Sequence record: NC_073059.1
DNA length: 45,243 nucleotides
DNA from: Escherichia phage vB_EcoS-CHD5UKE2
Reading direction: 5' to 3' (one strand)
In this document: positions 10,685-31,970 of the stretch, one piece after another
Layout of the letters: each line of letters starts with the position of its first letter
How positions within the stretch are numbered: the stretch's first letter is position 1
The notes under the pieces: generated by a model
What the model was told of the DNA's origin: nothing
Database searches by the model: none
Seen by the model: the letters and a program-made list of their open reading frames with translations, nothing else
Translations under genes and position numbers: made by a program

Positions 10685-12070
10685 TTAGTAGAAGTCTACA
10701 GTTGGAACAACGGCGATAGGTCGAATCACTGGGAACAGGTGCGCAACAGGGTAGCCCGCGGCATCGTTCATGTGGTCCACACCGGCGGTTTTATCCGGCT
10801 CGCCTTTCTTCAGGTCATAAACCTGCTGTTCCAGACATTTCGCTAGTGTAGGGCATTTATCCAGGTTGACAAAATACTGGCGCACGCCCTTCGAGTTGCA
10901 CATCATCGTATTCATCGCGATCAATCTGTCTTTCACGGGCGGGTTAACGCTGTCATACTCCACCTCGAAGCCAGCGTCTTCCAGTTGCGCGATATCGGAC
11001 GACGATGCGTTAACAGTCTTACGAGACTTGCCACTGCTATCCGGGTAAACGACGACCCGACCGGCAGCACAATGATCGGGGTAGCGCTCCTCGATCGCCT
11101 CAATCATAGCCGGGGTATCAAACAGGTCCACGAATTCATCCACTGCGTGAATCTCGTCGCGGAACTCCTTGTTCTCGGTAGTGTGCTGCCGTCTGACGTA
11201 CACAACCGCCGCCATTTTCGTTACGTTAAAGTCCATACCGATAATCAGCGTATCATCCGGATGCACTTCCTCGGTGCTGGCGTTCTCTTCTCGGTTAAAC
11301 ATCTTATAGACCGCGCCAGACGTAAGGTTGACAAACAGGCCGTTCAGGTATGCGTCAATCAGGTTTGCCGGGTACTGGCTTCGCAGCGTGTCGATAAAGT
11401 CTGCCGGTAAGTGGTGGTTGTCGGTAGTCTTTGCCCTGATCAAACGTTTTTGGCTATCCTTCTCCACTTCGAAAATCTGATACATCGCCCGGAAGCCTTC
11501 CGGCGTGGATACGATGACAAACTGGCGCACCAGGCCCGCACGCAGACGACCAAGCAATTTGTGGTAAGCCGCCATAGCGACGTCTTGCTTCGTGGTGTCG
11601 AACTCATCGGCAACAATCCACGCGGCGTTAACCCCGATCAGGCGGGTGTAGTTCTCCATTGACTCACAAATAACGCGCGTCCATTTGCCTTTCACCAGCA
11701 CGCTGTAAATTTTATCTTGCTTGTTGAACTTCCACCGGAATCCAGCCTCGTCGAAAGCCTTCTCAAGCTCCGGGTACATGATTTTAACAAGGAGTGGAAT
11801 AGTCGGTTCGGTCACGATGCCATCATGACCAGGGTTAAGTGTAAGAAGCTGGATGACCTTACGCGCCGCGACCCATGACTTTCCGCCACCGAAGCCGGAG
11901 CAAAGGCCGAGGATTTTAGTCTTAGTGTCGCGCAGTAATTCCACCTGGTGCGGTAGGCAATCAGGCTGATACAGGCGGACGGCCTGCGCAACGCGCGTAG
12001 GGCGTGGCGGACGGTTGCGCTTTGCGATCGAGCGCTCAAGTGCGCGGTGTTCTGCCGCATAGTTACGCAT
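10685..12070 (-). CDS. Terminase large subunit
   Basis: 461 aa; Walker A-like GFGGGKS near the N-terminus; overlaps the small-subunit stop. Confidence 0.7.
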   Translation of the reverse strand: MRNYAAEHRALERSIAKRNRPPRPTRVAQAVRLYQPDCLPHQVELLRDTKTKILGLCSGFGGGKSWVAARKVIQLLTLNPGHDGIVTEPTIPLLVKIMYPELEKAFDEAGFRWKFNKQDKIYSVLVKGKWTRVICESMENYTRLIGVNAAWIVADEFDTTKQDVAMAAYHKLLGRLRAGLVRQFVIVSTPEGFRAMYQIFEVEKDSQKRLIRAKTTDNHHLPADFIDTLRSQYPANLIDAYLNGLFVNLTSGAVYKMFNREENASTEEVHPDDTLIIGMDFNVTKMAAVVYVRRQHTTENKEFRDEIHAVDEFVDLFDTPAMIEAIEERYPDHCAAGRVVVYPDSSGKSRKTVNASSSDIAQLEDAGFEVEYDSVNPPVKDRLIAMNTMMCNSKGVRQYFVNLDKCPTLAKCLEQQVYDLKKGEPDKTAGVDHMNDAAGYPVAHLFPVIRPIAVVPTVDFY

Positions 12071-12621
12071 TATTCGCCCTGGCCTTTGCCGGTTGGCTCA
12101 ACAACGACGTCGCCGTTATCATCTTCGTCGTCATCCAGCGGAGCATCGTCACGAATGCCGTGGTTGGCTTTAAGCAGGAACGTAGCGAAGCCAGCCGCGA
12201 TGGTCACGCCGCCAGCTTCCATCAGGAAAGTTTTCTGCAACTCCATAGCGTCCGCCATCGCTTCGGCGAACTCCTCATGTGCGCGCGCCCAGCGGTACAG
12301 GCAAGCGATGCCAACGCCAATATCCGCGGCAAAGCGACCGAGAGTCGGCATCTTGTTGTGAGGGATTACTTGCGCAGCGCCCTTGTCGGAGTAGTTGATC
12401 TGCCAGGCTACGGCATCAGCAAAATAGCGGCGAAGCTGGTCACAATATACGGTGCGGTAGTCGGTCGGGCGTCCGCATTTGCCGCCTTTACGACGTTTGC
12501 CGTATTCGATCTCAGGTCCAAGATTGGTGTGTTCTGTTTGCTCGCCTGGTTTACGGCGCGGGGTAACTGCTACTCGTCCGTCCAGTTTGGCACGACGGCC
12601 TTTAACTTTGATTTCTGCCAT
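12070..12621 (-). CDS. Terminase small subunit (putative)
   Basis: Start revised to ATG 12621 (MAEIKVKGRRAKL...); basic N-terminus, HTH-like LGRFAADIGVGIACLYRWA, acidic C-terminus; stop overlaps TerL start. Confidence 0.5.
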   Translation of the reverse strand: MAEIKVKGRRAKLDGRVAVTPRRKPGEQTEHTNLGPEIEYGKRRKGGKCGRPTDYRTVYCDQLRRYFADAVAWQINYSDKGAAQVIPHNKMPTLGRFAADIGVGIACLYRWARAHEEFAEAMADAMELQKTFLMEAGGVTIAAGFATFLLKANHGIRDDAPLDDDEDDNGDVVVEPTGKGQGE

Positions 12622-12738
12622 GATATAAGCCCTTTTATGCATATGCGCCGACCATCGGCAGCATAGGAGACGGCCCAGCCATCTAAGGGGGATTATAACA
12701 GGCACAAAAAAGCCCACCAAATCGGCGGGCTGGGAGGA

Positions 12739-12951
12739 TTAAACGGCGCGACCGTAGTATCTGGTCAACATGCTTTCTACTTCGCTTATAGCGCCTTCTG
12801 TGTAGCGTATCTGCGATAGTATCTCGATCCGCTCACTGATAGACATGCCGATTGCCGCTGCCGTTCGTTCGAATCGGCGCAAGCCTTCGAGTTGTTTGCG
12901 TAGCTCTTTCAGGCGGGTGGCCTGCGTGCTCATGAATACTTGTCTAATCAT
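12739..12951 (-). CDS. Hypothetical protein
   Basis: 70 aa ORF; ATGA overlap with the upstream gene; weak terminator-like hairpin downstream. Confidence 0.45.
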   Translation of the reverse strand: MIRQVFMSTQATRLKELRKQLEGLRRFERTAAAIGMSISERIEILSQIRYTEGAISEVESMLTRYYGRAV

Positions 12952-14090
12952 TTCAACATTTCCGGGCTAATGGTTAAGCGCGCTACTTCGCCATAGTTGG
13001 CGCTATAGGTGATGACGTTTGCACTGCGACCAGACATCCAACCGCCGCGGCTTGCATATGCGTCTTTCGCGGCAAGGGTCCGGTGCTGTTCGACAATCAT
13101 GTTGCGGGATTCTACAATCTTCTGGTGGTGCAAGTGGCCTACATGCGCGTAGCTGTACTCACTGGAACCGAAAGCCTGTCTGAATTTAGAAATCATAACC
13201 GGCTCGATAGCATCAAAGCGTGCTTTGTGCCCGTGGTGGAAAAACAGCGTTGTCTTTCCGTGCTGCACCATTTTGTAAACGTCCGGGGATGTATCCACAT
13301 CGACGCGCGGCTCGTTCTCGTACAGGGTATTGAACATCTCCGCCAGCCAAATCATACCGGACTCATCATGATTACCCTGGACGATTAGCAGTTTGACCTT
13401 ATGGTGTTTTTGCAGCGCCAGTTCAACCACGTTGCGCACCATGCGAATCATGTAGCGGACCAACTTCTGGTAGCGGGTGTCCGCGTCCAGTACGTGACCA
13501 CTGGCTGGAGTGACGGCGTCGAGGCTATCAAAGTGCGCCATATCGCCGAGGATATTGATCACGGCAGTGCCTGCGTCCGGGGCGCGTGCGAAGGCTTCGA
13601 CAAACCAGCGGTAGAACAGGTCTTCGGCGATCGCCATATCCCAGTCCTCGCCAGTCTCCTCGCCCCAGGCCAACATGCCCAGGTGGAAGTCGGACACGGT
13701 GTACAGGTTGAGCAAGTCTAGTGCCTGGATCGGTACTGGCGGGGCGTTTACTGGCGCTGCCGGTGTGATTTCGCTGTTCATACCCTCGACAACAGCGCGC
13801 ATAGCTTCGAGTTGGCGCTCCTTGTCCTGCTCAGTGATGACCCACGACATGACCTCTTCGCCATTGCCGCGCACCAGGGCCGATACGCGCTTAACCCCAA
13901 AGCCATCGGCAACGCGCTTGCGGATTACGGCATCGTTGCCGTGTCCAATGCCTTTTTTCGATAGGCGGGCTTTCCGCATATAAACATTGCGTAGGGCAAT
14001 CCCGTATTTCTTCGCAATATCTTTAACCGTAGTCCCTGCCTGAATTTCTGCGATCAATTGCTCATCGGTAATTTTAGTTTGCGGGTGCAT
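12948..14090 (-). CDS. HTH-domain / calcineurin-like metallophosphoesterase fusion
   Basis: N-terminal HTH-like TVKDIAKKYGIALRNVYMRKARL; phosphoesterase motifs DFHLG, GDMAHF, GNHDE, HHGH, GHLHH. Confidence 0.55.
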   Translation of the reverse strand: MHPQTKITDEQLIAEIQAGTTVKDIAKKYGIALRNVYMRKARLSKKGIGHGNDAVIRKRVADGFGVKRVSALVRGNGEEVMSWVITEQDKERQLEAMRAVVEGMNSEITPAAPVNAPPVPIQALDLLNLYTVSDFHLGMLAWGEETGEDWDMAIAEDLFYRWFVEAFARAPDAGTAVINILGDMAHFDSLDAVTPASGHVLDADTRYQKLVRYMIRMVRNVVELALQKHHKVKLLIVQGNHDESGMIWLAEMFNTLYENEPRVDVDTSPDVYKMVQHGKTTLFFHHGHKARFDAIEPVMISKFRQAFGSSEYSYAHVGHLHHQKIVESRNMIVEQHRTLAAKDAYASRGGWMSGRSANVITYSANYGEVARLTISPEMLK

Positions 14091-14300
14091 ATTTAATTAA
14101 TTCCTGATTAGTGGACCGTGGACAATATACCACGGTCCGTATGGCGGCGGGCTATATCAATTCGCAAATAACCATGCCGATAAAAGCCGCGGTGGTCCAG
14201 ATCGCTAATACCCAAATATCTTTACGTGCCATCTTGATTACTCCTCCAGTTGATTGGTTGCAGTATGGCCCCTGTGTTGGTTGCGAGTCAAGCAATAAAA

Positions 14301-14320
14301 AGCCCGGAATTAACCGGGCT
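14301..14320 (-). terminator. Rho-independent terminator at the end of the lysis cassette
   Basis: Hairpin agcccgg-aattaa-ccgggct followed by a T-tract on the minus strand. Confidence 0.5.
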
Positions 14321-14327
14321 TGATTGT

Positions 14328-14495
14328 TTACGTCACTGGGTCAGATTCTTCCTGTGGCGGCGGGCTAGGCAGCTTCGCGTCAAAGACGCCTGCATGGCTG
14401 ATAGTGTCCGCGATGATAGCGCGTGCGCCAGGGTCTTCGGTTTTAGCCAGCGCGGCGAGCGCGTCCGCATTATGATCAAGAATACTTTTTAACAT
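14328..14495 (-). CDS. Small hypothetical protein (55 aa), not in ORF track
   Basis: ATG 14495 with RBS GAGGTGA; MLKSILDHNADALAALAKTEDPGARAIIADTISHAGVFDAKLPSPPPQEESDPVT; terminator immediately downstream. Confidence 0.4.
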   Translation of the reverse strand: MLKSILDHNADALAALAKTEDPGARAIIADTISHAGVFDAKLPSPPPQEESDPVT

Positions 14496-14511
14496 ATCGT
14501 GTCACCTCGTA

Positions 14512-15003
14512 TTATGCAGCGTTACGACCGATTCGCTCGGCAACGTCCCACTGCTTACCATCGAATAGCGCTTGCCTGCCGATTGCACGGCGCACCAGAC
14601 CCTTAAGCACTTCGCCACCTTGCTTGCGGAACTGCGGCAGAGTAGCTCGTACCTTCGCCCAGTCGCCCAAGCGCACCGCGTCGTCGAAGTCATTGGCAAT
14701 ATGGTCCGGTACGATCGGACCTTGACCTGCATTGATAACCAGGTCCACCAGCGCGTCGAATTGCGCCTGGTTAATGCTCTTATGCGCGTATTTGTTCACC
14801 CAGTCCTCAGCATACGCCACATCGCGCTTAAGTAGCTCCAGCGCTTCCGCGCGGGTAATGCTTCGAGGCGGGTTAGTGCCAGTGTGACCATAACCCCAGG
14901 TGTACAGGCCGCGGGCCTGCTCTTTCTTAGTCGCGAAATACGGCACCGGGCTAAACGTCTCCCATGCTGCCGTAAATCGTAGACCGTTGTCACTGAATCG
15001 CAT
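14512..15003 (-). CDS. Endolysin (lysozyme, T4-lysozyme-like)
   Basis: 163 aa; TWGYGHT motif and overall lysozyme-like composition; directly downstream of holin-like genes. Confidence 0.6.
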   Translation of the reverse strand: MRFSDNGLRFTAAWETFSPVPYFATKKEQARGLYTWGYGHTGTNPPRSITRAEALELLKRDVAYAEDWVNKYAHKSINQAQFDALVDLVINAGQGPIVPDHIANDFDDAVRLGDWAKVRATLPQFRKQGGEVLKGLVRRAIGRQALFDGKQWDVAERIGRNAA

Positions 15004-15235
15004 GTTTTACCCCATTCAAAACAGCATTACGCAGCGTGCGCAATGCAAACAGCCAGATTAACGCGGTCCAGGTGGTGTCAGATACGTCTCCTGTTTGCAA
15101 CAATCCGATAACGCAGATCATCGCCGTTAGCAGATATAGCACCCGGCCTAAAATGCCATCCTTGACGGACGGCGCATACACGTTAAACAGGGACGAAGCC
15201 CCTATGATAACAAACAACAGGACGGAGATAATCAT
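14990..15235 (-). CDS. Holin-like small membrane protein
   Basis: 81 aa with 2-3 hydrophobic helices; overlaps the endolysin start. Confidence 0.5.
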   Translation of the reverse strand: MIISVLLFVIIGASSLFNVYAPSVKDGILGRVLYLLTAMICVIGLLQTGDVSDTTWTALIWLFALRTLRNAVLNGVKHAIQ

Positions 15236-15522
15236 TTTGCGCCCCCCGGAAGTCGGAACGACTCAATAGTCTCCCTGATCCGGGCGGCTATTGGCATCCA
15301 GAAGATTGCAGTTACGAACCCCAAACCGGCGACAGTGCGCTCGCCAGATAAACCAGCCCACTCGGCGATAGCAGGCGCACCAAAGATGGCACACAAGAAG
15401 CCGACCACGATATATAAAACGAAGTTTAGCGGCCCTTTCGTAGCCTCACCGTGAATGCGAGCGCCAACGAAGCCACCTGCAAGACACGCGAGGGCGAATA
15501 ACCACTCGTTTAGCTTATCCAT
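15232..15522 (-). CDS. Holin (putative)
   Basis: 96 aa with hydrophobic helices and charged C-terminus; ATGA overlap with the next gene. Confidence 0.5.
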   Translation of the reverse strand: MDKLNEWLFALACLAGGFVGARIHGEATKGPLNFVLYIVVGFLCAIFGAPAIAEWAGLSGERTVAGLGFVTAIFWMPIAARIRETIESFRLPGGAK

Positions 15523-20199: not shown

Positions 20200-20649
20200 T
20201 CATTTAGCCCACTGGCGAATAGTAGAACGGTTGATTCCGGTCATCTCAGCTATCTGATTCCATGATAGCCCTTCCTCGCGTAGCCGCTTAACGACCGGTG
20301 CATACTTCTCTCGGGCGAGGGTCATCTCGCGTGCCGCTTCTTCTGATTTGCGCACTGCCTCGATAGCGCCGCCTTTCAACAGGTCAAGCTCGGCTTGCAT
20401 ATTGTCTCGCTCGTCCGCAAGGCCGTTATACGACTGCATGTAAAAGGATAACTTGTCCATAAGGGCCGTGATTATGTCAGATGCCGTGGTCTTATCCATC
20501 GCCAGAATATCGGCAGCTTGCTCGGCGTGCGGGATCGGGTCTGCGCAAAAATCGCCGAAGGTGATAGTCTTTCCGTCGTCCCAGGAAAGGGCGATTTGGT
20601 GAGTCCATTTCGTATGGTTCCAGCGATTTAAGGTTTCGTTAGTGCTCAT
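20200..20649 (-). CDS. HTH transcriptional regulator (putative)
   Basis: 149 aa; C-terminal HTH-like LSWNQIAEMTGINRSTIRQWAK; first gene from a strong divergent promoter. Confidence 0.5.
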   Translation of the reverse strand: MSTNETLNRWNHTKWTHQIALSWDDGKTITFGDFCADPIPHAEQAADILAMDKTTASDIITALMDKLSFYMQSYNGLADERDNMQAELDLLKGGAIEAVRKSEEAAREMTLAREKYAPVVKRLREEGLSWNQIAEMTGINRSTIRQWAK

Positions 20650-30318: not shown

Positions 30319-30350
30319 GGTGTCCGGTTGGACGCCCTTTTTAATACCTG
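30319..30350 (+). terminator. Terminator-like hairpin in the leader of the following gene
   Basis: gggtgtcc-ggtt-ggacgccc followed by TTTTTAAT, sitting between TTGGTTGCG/TTGGTTGCA boxes and the RBS. Confidence 0.4.
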
Positions 30351-30361
30351 GAGACAACACG

Positions 30362-30826
30362 ATGAAAATTTTACAAGAAGAAAAAGCATACTGGGCCGCG
30401 CAATGCCTCGAAGCCCGTGAACAGGCCGAACGCGCGAACGCGCTGGCGGACACCAACCAGGCGCTATATGAAGGAGAGAAGAAAGTGCGCCGGGAGTTGG
30501 AGGAACGCTTCGAACTGCTTTTCGAATTGATGGGGATTATGCAGCGCACCGGATACACAACCAGCGTTGCGCTAAACCGCATCACTGCCGAAGGGCTGCG
30601 GGAACATTGCAAACGTGCGGAGGAGTACGTGCGACCTAAAGGTAGACAGTCTAAGGTTGATCGTAAAGATTTGGTGCTTGTGGCGTGGCACAATACTCAG
30701 ACGGGTAGCTACTACCCGGATGCGCGCCCACGTAGTGAAGAGGACGCAAAGCGCGTGCATCGCATAGTCGGCAAATACGAAAAGATTGCCCTATACGCAC
30801 TGGACCCGCAGAATGACGAAGAGTGA
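30362..30826 (+). CDS. Hypothetical protein
   Basis: ATG 30362 with RBS GGAGAC; 154 aa. Confidence 0.5.
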   Translation: MKILQEEKAYWAAQCLEAREQAERANALADTNQALYEGEKKVRRELEERFELLFELMGIMQRTGYTTSVALNRITAEGLREHCKRAEEYVRPKGRQSKVDRKDLVLVAWHNTQTGSYYPDARPRSEEDAKRVHRIVGKYEKIALYALDPQNDEE

Positions 30827-31298: not shown

Positions 31299-31503
31299 CC
31301 GCGACCCTGCGGTAGTAGACCTGATACAAAAAGACTATGGAATCGACCCGCGGCATAATCGTGTGCTGCGCGTGTCGCGACCTGAATCCATCATGGGCCT
31401 CGACCTTACCGGCTGGCTTGTCATGACCCAGCGATGCCATTTCGTATGCAACTCCTTTACTGCGCGAAGCGCCCGTCACACCCTTATTGAGAGCTTAAAA
31501 TGA
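31270..31503 (+). CDS. Hypothetical small protein
   Basis: 77 aa ORF overlapping both neighbours; start uncertain. Confidence 0.35.
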   Translation: MSYMNILIVDRDPAVVDLIQKDYGIDPRHNRVLRVSRPESIMGLDLTGWLVMTQRCHFVCNSFTARSARHTLIESLK

Positions 31504-31970
31504 AACTACTGATTTGTGATCTGGATGGCGTTATTAATGGTTCAAGTGATGCGCGTGCTGACCTGGTGCCCGGCATAAAAACCAAATCAACATTTTGGGC
31601 GAAGTGGCACAAAGCACACGTACGCGAAGACCTTAACATGGATATGTTGCCGCTGCTGCGCATGTACAAAGGGCAAGGCTTCGAGATAGCGTATCTGACT
31701 AACCGGCAGCGCGAATGCTGGGATACGACCGCCAAGCAATTGGAAGTATTCCCGACGGGCCGGTTGTTCATGCGCCACATGCTGGACGACACCCCACCGC
31801 CAGAATTTAAAGCATGCGCGGTGGTCAAAATGGTTTGCTATGCGGACGTGTCCGAACTGGTCATCATTGAAGACTGCGCTAAGAATATTGACGCCATCCG
31901 TCGGGCGTGCAGCGATATGGTCCCTAAAATTTATTCTATAAACGTAGCAAAATTTACTTGCAACCAATAG
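31500..31970 (+). CDS. HAD-superfamily phosphatase (possible nucleotidase)
   Basis: N-terminal LICDLDGVI (HAD motif I DxDG); 156 aa. Confidence 0.5.
   Translation: MKLLICDLDGVINGSSDARADLVPGIKTKSTFWAKWHKAHVREDLNMDMLPLLRMYKGQGFEIAYLTNRQRECWDTTAKQLEVFPTGRLFMRHMLDDTPPPEFKACAVVKMVCYADVSELVIIEDCAKNIDAIRRACSDMVPKIYSINVAKFTCNQ

Follow-up and report, generated by a model that had tools for sequence, protein, structure and literature searches.

Domain anatomy, distribution and possible function of a helix-turn-helix metallophosphoesterase encoded by a Dhillonvirus-type coliphage

The minus strand of Escherichia phage vB_EcoS-CHD5UKE2 (NC_073059.1) encodes a 380-residue protein that joins an N-terminal helix-turn-helix (HTH), a small linker domain and a calcineurin-like metallophosphoesterase (MPE) domain in a single chain. 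The window, by which we mean the whole stretch of DNA that was analyzed (45,243 bp, 54% GC), is a near-complete Dhillonvirus-type coliphage genome. Its HTH-MPE gene belongs, as an ordinary and near-identical member, to PHROG 704, a family that public databases already name and that is described as core in T1-like phages. We tentatively favor, with somewhat less than even confidence, the view that the product is a DNA-tethered, Rad50-independent nuclease or phosphodiesterase that acts on host or phage DNA; DNA as the substrate, DNA binding by the HTH, and the biological role are what we infer.

12948..14090 including the stop codon, minus strand: coding sequence of the HTH-linker-MPE protein, PHROG 704, T1 gp16-like (open reading frame of 380 residues)

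Comparison with four Dhillonvirus orthologues, which differ from the gene by 5–10% at the nucleotide level, places 83–94% of the nucleotide differences at third codon positions and gives a ratio of synonymous to non-synonymous codon changes of about 9–19:1. This third-position bias and synonymous excess clearly indicate that the open reading frame (ORF) is a real, functional gene under strong purifying selection. The surrounding 3.6 kb is 91–93% identical to the corresponding DNA of slur05, slur06, BF9, PC2, and more than 100 other records, and the gene order in the window is that of slur05-, slur06-, BF9- and PC2-type phages. At the protein level, Bas84_0067 of phage JohannBuxtorf is 99.2% identical, and T1 gp16 (ST16) shares 45% identity over its full length, including all three domains. 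An earlier note on this DNA had proposed a profile search for the exact phosphoesterase subfamily. That search returned the PHROG 704 model, named "DNA repair exonuclease", end to end (E = 4.6e-161, residues 5–380 against profile positions 2–390 of 390), with PHROG 284 "exonuclease" as a weaker second match (3.5e-13) and with the SbcD and Mre11 models unmatched.

An alignment of 45 homologues (31–48% identity to the query) served both as input to AlphaFold2 and for the analysis of conservation. The resulting confident model (mean pLDDT 91.1, pTM 0.79) has three parts, the last of them an alpha/beta domain that starts near residue 126 and extends to the C-terminus, and the catalytic domain carries the five motifs that characterize its superfamily:

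13956..14066, minus strand: N-terminal HTH of the LuxR/GerE or sigma-70 region 4 type, residues 9–45 (AlphaFold2 and family-level Pfam matches)
13773..13913, minus strand: linker of a beta-hairpin (64–88) and a helix (90–106), with invariant W83 (AlphaFold2 and alignment)
12951..13715, minus strand: MPE catalytic domain, residues 126–380 (motifs, invariance, and fold matches to DP1, Mre11 and SbcD)
13691-13683, minus strand: motif I, DFH, residue 134 (sequence)
13547-13533, minus strand: motif II, GDMAH, residue 182 (sequence)
13376-13365, minus strand: motif III, GNHD, residue 239 (sequence)
13238-13227, minus strand: motif IV, HHGH, residue 285 (sequence)
13139-13125, minus strand: motif V, GHLHH, residue 318 (sequence)

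The HTH, which the earlier note had described as an HTH-like N-terminal segment, is borne out by three predicted helices (9–17, 22–29, and 33–45; pLDDT 87–92) and by profile matches at the level of the family. Taken alone, the query gives weak, sub-threshold Pfam matches (GerE, HTH_7, and HTH_28, E 0.03–0.06), while homologues aligned in the same N-terminal columns match Sigma70_r4_2 (best 1.5e-9) and GerE (2.4e-8). A search of the PDB with the family profile found the GerE structure 1fse at E 0.0057, together with HTH structures of NarL, DesR, and sigma-H; no MPE chain was matched in that sequence search. These profile comparisons show the HTH to be a conserved component of the family, unambiguous at family level though weak in the query alone.

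Assignment of the catalytic domain to the calcineurin-like superfamily rests on motifs and fold, because the scores against Pfam MPE models stay below the curated gathering cut-offs (20.0 against 21.5 bits for Metallophos and 22.1 against 27 bits for Metallophos_2). All five superfamily motifs (DxH, GD, GNH[D/E], H, and GHxH) are present, so that the earlier description of a complete motif set holds, and the model has the beta-sandwich MPE fold. The earlier note had also named loss of conservation at the metal ligands as an observation that would refute its assignment; the ligands proved invariant in all 45 homologues. The invariant positions at the motifs are D134, H136, G182, D183, N240, H241, H286, G318, and H321. 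Beyond the ligands, W83 and T194 are invariant and specific to the family, and E145, H186, D188, L201, D202, R206, R262, T338, R355, and Y362 are nearly so. A conserved insert, VTPxSGHxLDADxR, follows motif II, and the family has a conserved C-terminal segment, EQHxTLAAxDAYAxRGG..S.R.A..ITY. Since the Pfam MPE models remain just under their cut-offs, PHROG 704 is best described, at the level of sequence, as a divergent clade of the superfamily.

The fusion of an HTH to an MPE domain, which the earlier note had called uncommon, is instead the defining architecture of a very large and already catalogued phage family. The HTH segment is kept in 133, and the linker domain in 138, of the best 150 representatives clustered at 50% identity, which is why the fusion is no rarity. 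An HTH-less homologue of 317 residues occurs in Fletchervirus. Relatives were found by tblastn in 2,061 of 50,697 phage records, among them Dhillonvirus, Kagunavirus, Jerseyvirus, T1-like Drexlerviridae, and Klebsiella weberviruses, as well as phages of Vibrio, Rhodobacter, Ruegeria, and Campylobacter. An exhaustive search of 50%-identity cluster representatives gave 4,650 matches at E <= 1e-3 and 1,130 at E <= 1e-30. In BFVD, a collection of predicted viral structures, the family reaches MPE proteins of about 400 residues from Bacillus, Lactobacillus, and Cellulophaga phages (E 1e-12 to 1e-20), several of which are automatically named "DNA polymerase II small subunit". The contigs that bear homologues are of phage rather than chromosomal size (longest 80 kb, the longer ones mostly 30–45 kb, in 240 clusters from two protein-search listings). 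Among Drexlerviridae, a 2026 pangenome study reports as persistent a module of exonuclease, holin, endolysin, and spanin that 508 of 522 genomes share (PMC13164509), and the gene is thus a core gene there.

In Jerseyvirus, Vibrio phages, and T1 the gene often has an HNH endonuclease gene directly behind it (loci L003 5116-5586, L005 5010-5519, and L107 6029-6511), and some phages have it divided into an N-terminal and a C-terminal ORF that fall into separate PHROGs, 20703 and 20762; BFVD holds such fragments from Salmonella phage 36, KpV79, Jk06, and RDJL Phi 1. The adjacent HNH genes and the splitting suggest that homing endonucleases target the PHROG 704 gene.

How the protein might act can be outlined from its parts. 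The LuxR/sigma-4-type HTH would hold it on DNA, the small beta-hairpin/helix domain would follow, and the intact binuclear MPE domain would cut phosphodiester bonds. The enzyme would be self-sufficient and would need no Rad50/SbcC partner. Its target could be the host chromosome, for degradation or takeover, or the ends, intermediates, or branches of phage DNA, and its transcription unit would be shared with a 26-residue membrane peptide and a 70-residue helical protein. DNA is favored as the substrate because an enzyme acting on small soluble molecules would have little evident reason to keep an HTH, as 133 of 150 divergent representatives do. Foldseek comparison of the model ranks Mre11 first and Rv0805 second, with DP1 next, all at E of about 1e-7 and TM of about 0.4; the nearest solved folds thus lean modestly to the nuclease branch, and none is close. 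The motif flavors DFHLG, GD-x-x-H-x-D, and GNHD are Mre11/SbcD-like. Of the three activities raised in the earlier note (protein phosphatase, nuclease, and cyclic-nucleotide phosphodiesterase), the nuclease is best supported, because the nearest folds are nucleases, an HTH is present, and the neighbors are often genes of DNA metabolism; the protein phosphatase is disfavored.

A bolder form of this proposal takes its cue from phage T5. The A1 protein of T5, a predicted metallophosphatase said to resemble nucleases of double-strand-break repair and proofreading, is essential and sufficient for degradation of the host chromosome, alongside the DNA-binding protein A2 (bioRxiv 10.64898/2026.04.02.716235). 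The HTH-MPE protein might be a single-polypeptide counterpart of A1 plus A2, an HTH-guided, Rad50-independent Mre11/DP1-like nuclease that breaks down or silences the chromosome of the host and would thus be the principal nuclease for host takeover in T1-like phages and in Dhillonvirus, Jerseyvirus, Kagunavirus, and Webervirus. We consider this rather unlikely as a whole. The classical host-DNA-degradation function of T1, "gene 2.5", which is not known to have been assigned, could conceivably be this gene.

Several observations weigh against a DNA-directed nuclease. The sequence of the N-terminal HTH is poorly conserved in the 45-sequence alignment. The name "DNA repair exonuclease" was assigned automatically. 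The literature searched yielded no experimental work on PHROG 704, and an escaper-mutant study and the BASEL paper do not mention it. Curated NCBIfam models of SbcD and Mre11 gave no match; the search returned only UhpA, over the HTH, and fragments of PdeM at E > 0.03. Homology to T5 A1 was sought but not established: hhalign gave a probability of 18% against A1 alone, and 50.6% over 23 columns around motif III against a 24-sequence alignment of the A1 family. A1 matches PHROG 1745 only, with no overlap with PHROG 704. Because the match is short and the PHROG assignments are separate, A1 is treated here as an analogue and not as a demonstrated relative; the family profile likewise gave a probability of 1% against A2. 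Finally, across 94 diverse loci drawn from IMG/VR and other sources, in which neighboring genes were clustered, a lysis gene is present in 36, mostly within about 1.2 kb; its usual place is upstream of the MPE gene, in the same orientation. This proximity is genuine and recurs across loci. Its source may be synteny inherited from an ancestor, co-regulation of late genes, or a hotspot for accessory genes, and it would fit late expression or such a hotspot better than an early role in host takeover.

In the window, as the earlier note had it, the gene lies between lysis and terminase genes, with two holins and an endolysin upstream and the terminase subunits downstream. Between these groups are several further elements:

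15522-15232, minus strand: holin
15235-14990, minus strand: holin
15003-14512, minus strand: endolysin
14495-14328, minus strand: ORF of 55 residues matching PHROG 11068, "lysozyme downstream ORF"
14300..14321, minus strand: intrinsic terminator-like hairpin closing the lysis cassette unit (-16.4 kcal/mol, z = -5.3)
14262..14291, minus strand: sigma-70 promoter-like site TTGACT-18-CATACT (consensus scan)
14152..14232, minus strand: ORF for a 26-residue hydrophobic peptide, MARKDIWVLAIWTTAAFIGMVICELI, with a strong ribosome-binding site, conserved in five Dhillonviruses
14113..14138, no strand assigned: perfect 9-bp inverted repeat GGACCGTGG-N8-CCACGGTCC, 23 nt upstream of the start codon
12739..12951, minus strand: overlapping ORF for a helical protein of 70 residues, PHROG 20931, genus-specific, overlapping the MPE stop codon by 4 nt
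12711..12731, minus strand: intrinsic terminator-like hairpin between the 70-residue ORF and the small terminase gene (-15.2 kcal/mol, z = -3.1)

Both hairpins fold far better than shuffled controls and are conserved across five Dhillonviruses, and the depositors of WF5505 independently annotated terminators at both positions. The stem of the upstream hairpin is conserved in Dhillonviruses and its loop is variable; in the promoter-like site both hexamers are invariant among five Dhillonviruses, and two spacer positions vary. Beyond the second hairpin come the genes for the small terminase, large terminase, and portal. The order in T1 is terminator, two small ORFs, ST16, terminator, HNH, ST14, and holin, and phage tunus has a strong terminator and a promoter-like site between the gene and the holin. 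Because terminators bracket the gene both in Dhillonviruses and in T1, it appears from these sequence signals to occupy a small transcription unit of its own, outside the lysis and packaging operons, and its temporal class cannot be read from its position. The earlier suggestion of a role at packaging or lysis time, which was drawn from location among late genes, is accordingly weak: terminators lie on both sides, a promoter-like site precedes the gene, and its position relative to terminase is not conserved across lineages.

The 26-residue peptide has no PHROG, Pfam, or PADLOC match. A small protein with two transmembrane segments lies between A2 and A1 in T5, a resemblance that may be coincidence. 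The 70-residue ORF has no homologue among the small ORFs that follow the gene in other lineages. As for the flanking operons, the lysis cassette (14328-15522, minus strand) has two holins and an endolysin but no recognizable spanin. The small-terminase ORF as called (12070-12720, minus strand) has a TTG start at 12720 that runs into the terminator at 12731-12711; its PHROG match begins at residue 37, relatives are annotated at 190 residues, and the true start is probably 12642.

The inverted repeat is unique in the genome, where none is expected by chance. Its spacer, TGGTATATT, is invariant among Dhillonviruses and resembles an extended -10 element, and its stems vary in two relatives without compensating changes. 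As RNA it would fold at -19.4 kcal/mol (z = -2.4), and the WF5505 record annotates it as a terminator. Given the invariant spacer and the uncompensated changes in the stems, a protein-binding operator overlapping a promoter seems to fit somewhat better than an RNA hairpin, and the repeat could be a candidate binding site for the HTH. In five other lineages the region upstream of the gene has no comparable palindrome. An operator for autoregulation therefore finds no support as a property common to the family, and the palindrome is better regarded as a curiosity of the genus than as a family property.

The setting of the gene in other phages is varied. T1-like phages (T1 and tunus) have it after helicase, VRR-NUC, and Dam genes and before the holin. 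In Jerseyvirus it sits in a small island on the opposite strand among tail genes, beside a superinfection-immunity gene, an HNH endonuclease, and an anti-repressor. A Ruegeria phage places it next to a DNA methyltransferase and a dNMP phosphatase, and the HTH-less homologue of Fletchervirus adjoins a ligase and a Holliday-junction resolvase. Among the 94 loci, genes of two endolysin families and of a spanin are the commonest neighbors, and terminase or portal genes come next in frequency, in 12 loci. An integrase in 7 loci places a few relatives in temperate phages. Any single neighboring gene recurs in at most 22 of these loci, and the translationally coupled small ORFs found downstream of homologues in four lineages are mutually unrelated; neither a conserved partner nor an immunity protein emerged. 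One metagenomic phage with an HTH-MPE homologue also encodes a protein of the Acb2/Tad1-hairpin family, a sponge for defense signaling nucleotides (L014 8565-8927), about 1.4 kb downstream of the homologue and just after a lysozyme gene.

Two annotations elsewhere in the window deserve comment. The ORF at 30320-30826 (plus strand) matches PHROG 10530 "DNA ligase", is only 168 residues long, and has no Pfam match; its annotation as a ligase looks doubtful. The ORF at 20200-20649 (minus strand), which adjoins the primase-helicase gene, matches PHROG 9366 "transposase"; its 149 residues have a C-terminal HTH_23-type helix-turn-helix as their only recognizable feature, and a DNA-binding regulator is a likelier identity for it than a transposase.

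Other functions have to be weighed against action on DNA. The protein might be a phosphodiesterase for cyclic or linear (oligo)nucleotide messengers, a counter-defense enzyme directed at CBASS, Pycsar, type III CRISPR, or Thoeris-like systems, with the HTH used for autoregulation or localization. Rv0805, second in the Foldseek ranking, is a class III cyclic-nucleotide phosphodiesterase, and the nuclease folds score higher only by a modest margin. Persistence as a core gene in several virulent families (PMC13164509) is unlike the patchy occurrence typical of anti-defense genes, however, and a family-wide HTH would be needless in a small-molecule enzyme. Nor is autoregulation favored by the five other lineages, whose upstream regions hold no comparable palindromes. 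A PADLOC search with defense and counter-defense models gave no real match, only a spurious DrmC fragment over the HTH (E 0.012), and no other defense-related match was seen. We judge this activity unlikely, the foremost of the rivals all the same. Close behind, and a little more doubtful, is an end-healing phosphoesterase, a 3'-phosphatase or 2',3'-cyclic phosphodiesterase that would mend DNA or RNA ends that host nucleases have damaged. The bacterial RNA-repair enzyme Pnkp has a calcineurin-type MPE domain for end healing and would be the model for such an enzyme. The ligase next to the Fletchervirus homologue speaks for it, as does the observation that Drexlerviridae lacking the SH3 gene most often have polynucleotide kinase and dNMP kinase immediately after (PMC13164509). 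The idea is weakened because the "polynucleotide kinase" of the window is itself HAD-phosphatase-like, and a 3'-phosphatase may therefore already exist. That ORF (31500-31970, plus strand; PHROG 415) has Acid_phosphat_B as its only Pfam match (E 3e-4) and, at 156 residues, is too short for a kinase domain; it is probably a phosphatase. The HTH-MPE protein, moreover, has no sequence match to Pnkp-type models, and its HTH suggests a duplex DNA target and not RNA ends.

It is improbable, and more so than either of these, that the protein is primarily a transcription factor whose sigma-4/LuxR-like HTH switches phage or host transcription while the MPE domain acts as a sensor or has a secondary activity. 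The homology of the N-terminus to sigma-70 region 4 and LuxR HTHs is what such a regulator would show, and in T1-like phages and Dhillonvirus the gene is last or penultimate before a terminator, with lysis or packaging genes after it. The pleiotropic T5 A1 offers a parallel, being reported to bind RNA polymerase and to dampen pre-early transcription (bioRxiv 10.64898/2026.04.02.716235). Invariance of all the ligands and of further family-specific residues, in a family of thousands of sequences, nevertheless speaks for catalysis as the function under selection, and homologues without an HTH exist (Fletchervirus, 317 residues). The order in tunus and T1 is terminator and then promoter, whereas the target of an antiterminator would be expected to have the promoter first. 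A lambda-PP-type Ser/Thr/Tyr protein phosphatase acting on host signaling proteins, finally, seems very improbable. It would belong to the same superfamily, and phage lambda does encode a protein phosphatase of that superfamily, but the PPP-type signatures of lambda PP (GDxHG, GDxVDRG, and GNHE) are absent from the HTH-MPE protein.

Whichever activity is correct, few non-structural genes in several abundant virulent siphovirus families are as well conserved as the HTH-MPE gene; these families include therapy candidates against E. coli, Klebsiella, and Salmonella. A nuclease that acts on host DNA or DNA ends would bear on how these phages take over cells, on the level of generalized transduction, which is a safety issue in phage therapy, and on which DNA-damage or nucleotide-sensing defenses are triggered. 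An enzyme that degrades signaling nucleotides would represent a new class of counter-defense enzyme.

Comparison with known systems helps to place the protein. From the other members of PHROG 704, including T1 gp16, it has no essential difference, and in T1 the gene likewise lies in a terminator-bounded unit with small ORFs; the difference is one of location, after the endolysin and before terminase in Dhillonvirus and before the holin in Drexlerviridae. Departures from Mre11 and SbcD are more substantial. Those nucleases have a C-terminal capping domain that is absent from the HTH-MPE model, whose MPE core ends at residue 380, and the structural alignments to chains of 319–362 residues cover 186–192 residues at about 13–16% identity. 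Mre11 and SbcD work with Rad50 or SbcC, whereas the 45-kb phage genome has no SMC-like ORF, and they lack the N-terminal HTH, the hairpin domain, and the VTPxSGHxLDADxR insert. Archaeal PolD DP1, a 3'-5' proofreading exonuclease, shares 13% identity; the phage protein has neither a DP2 partner nor an OB-fold, and the phage encodes its own family-A-like DNA polymerase. Resemblance to the class III cyclic nucleotide monophosphate phosphodiesterases (Rv0805/CpdA) and to GpdQ is one of fold only, with no sequence match and no HTH in those enzymes, and the structural margin of the nucleases over them is modest.

Two experimentally studied phage proteins can be set beside it, T5 A1 and a mycobacteriophage protein. 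By eye, A1 and the HTH-MPE protein share NHD..S.WL after motif III and ..ITY..NG.. at the C-terminus. A1 is a pre-early protein of 556 residues with a separate DNA-binding partner, whereas the HTH is fused in the HTH-MPE protein. Gp48 of the cluster A mycobacteriophage A10ZJ24 is an MPE that has five motifs and acts as a phosphodiesterase; it damages the genomic DNA of its host and thereby blunts expression of defense genes (PMC12287305). It is an early gene product of an actinophage, and its motif I lies at residue 10 (a D10G mutant is reported), which leaves no N-terminal HTH or linker of the kind seen here. Both serve as functional precedent, rather than as established relatives, for a phage metallophosphoesterase directed at the DNA of its host.

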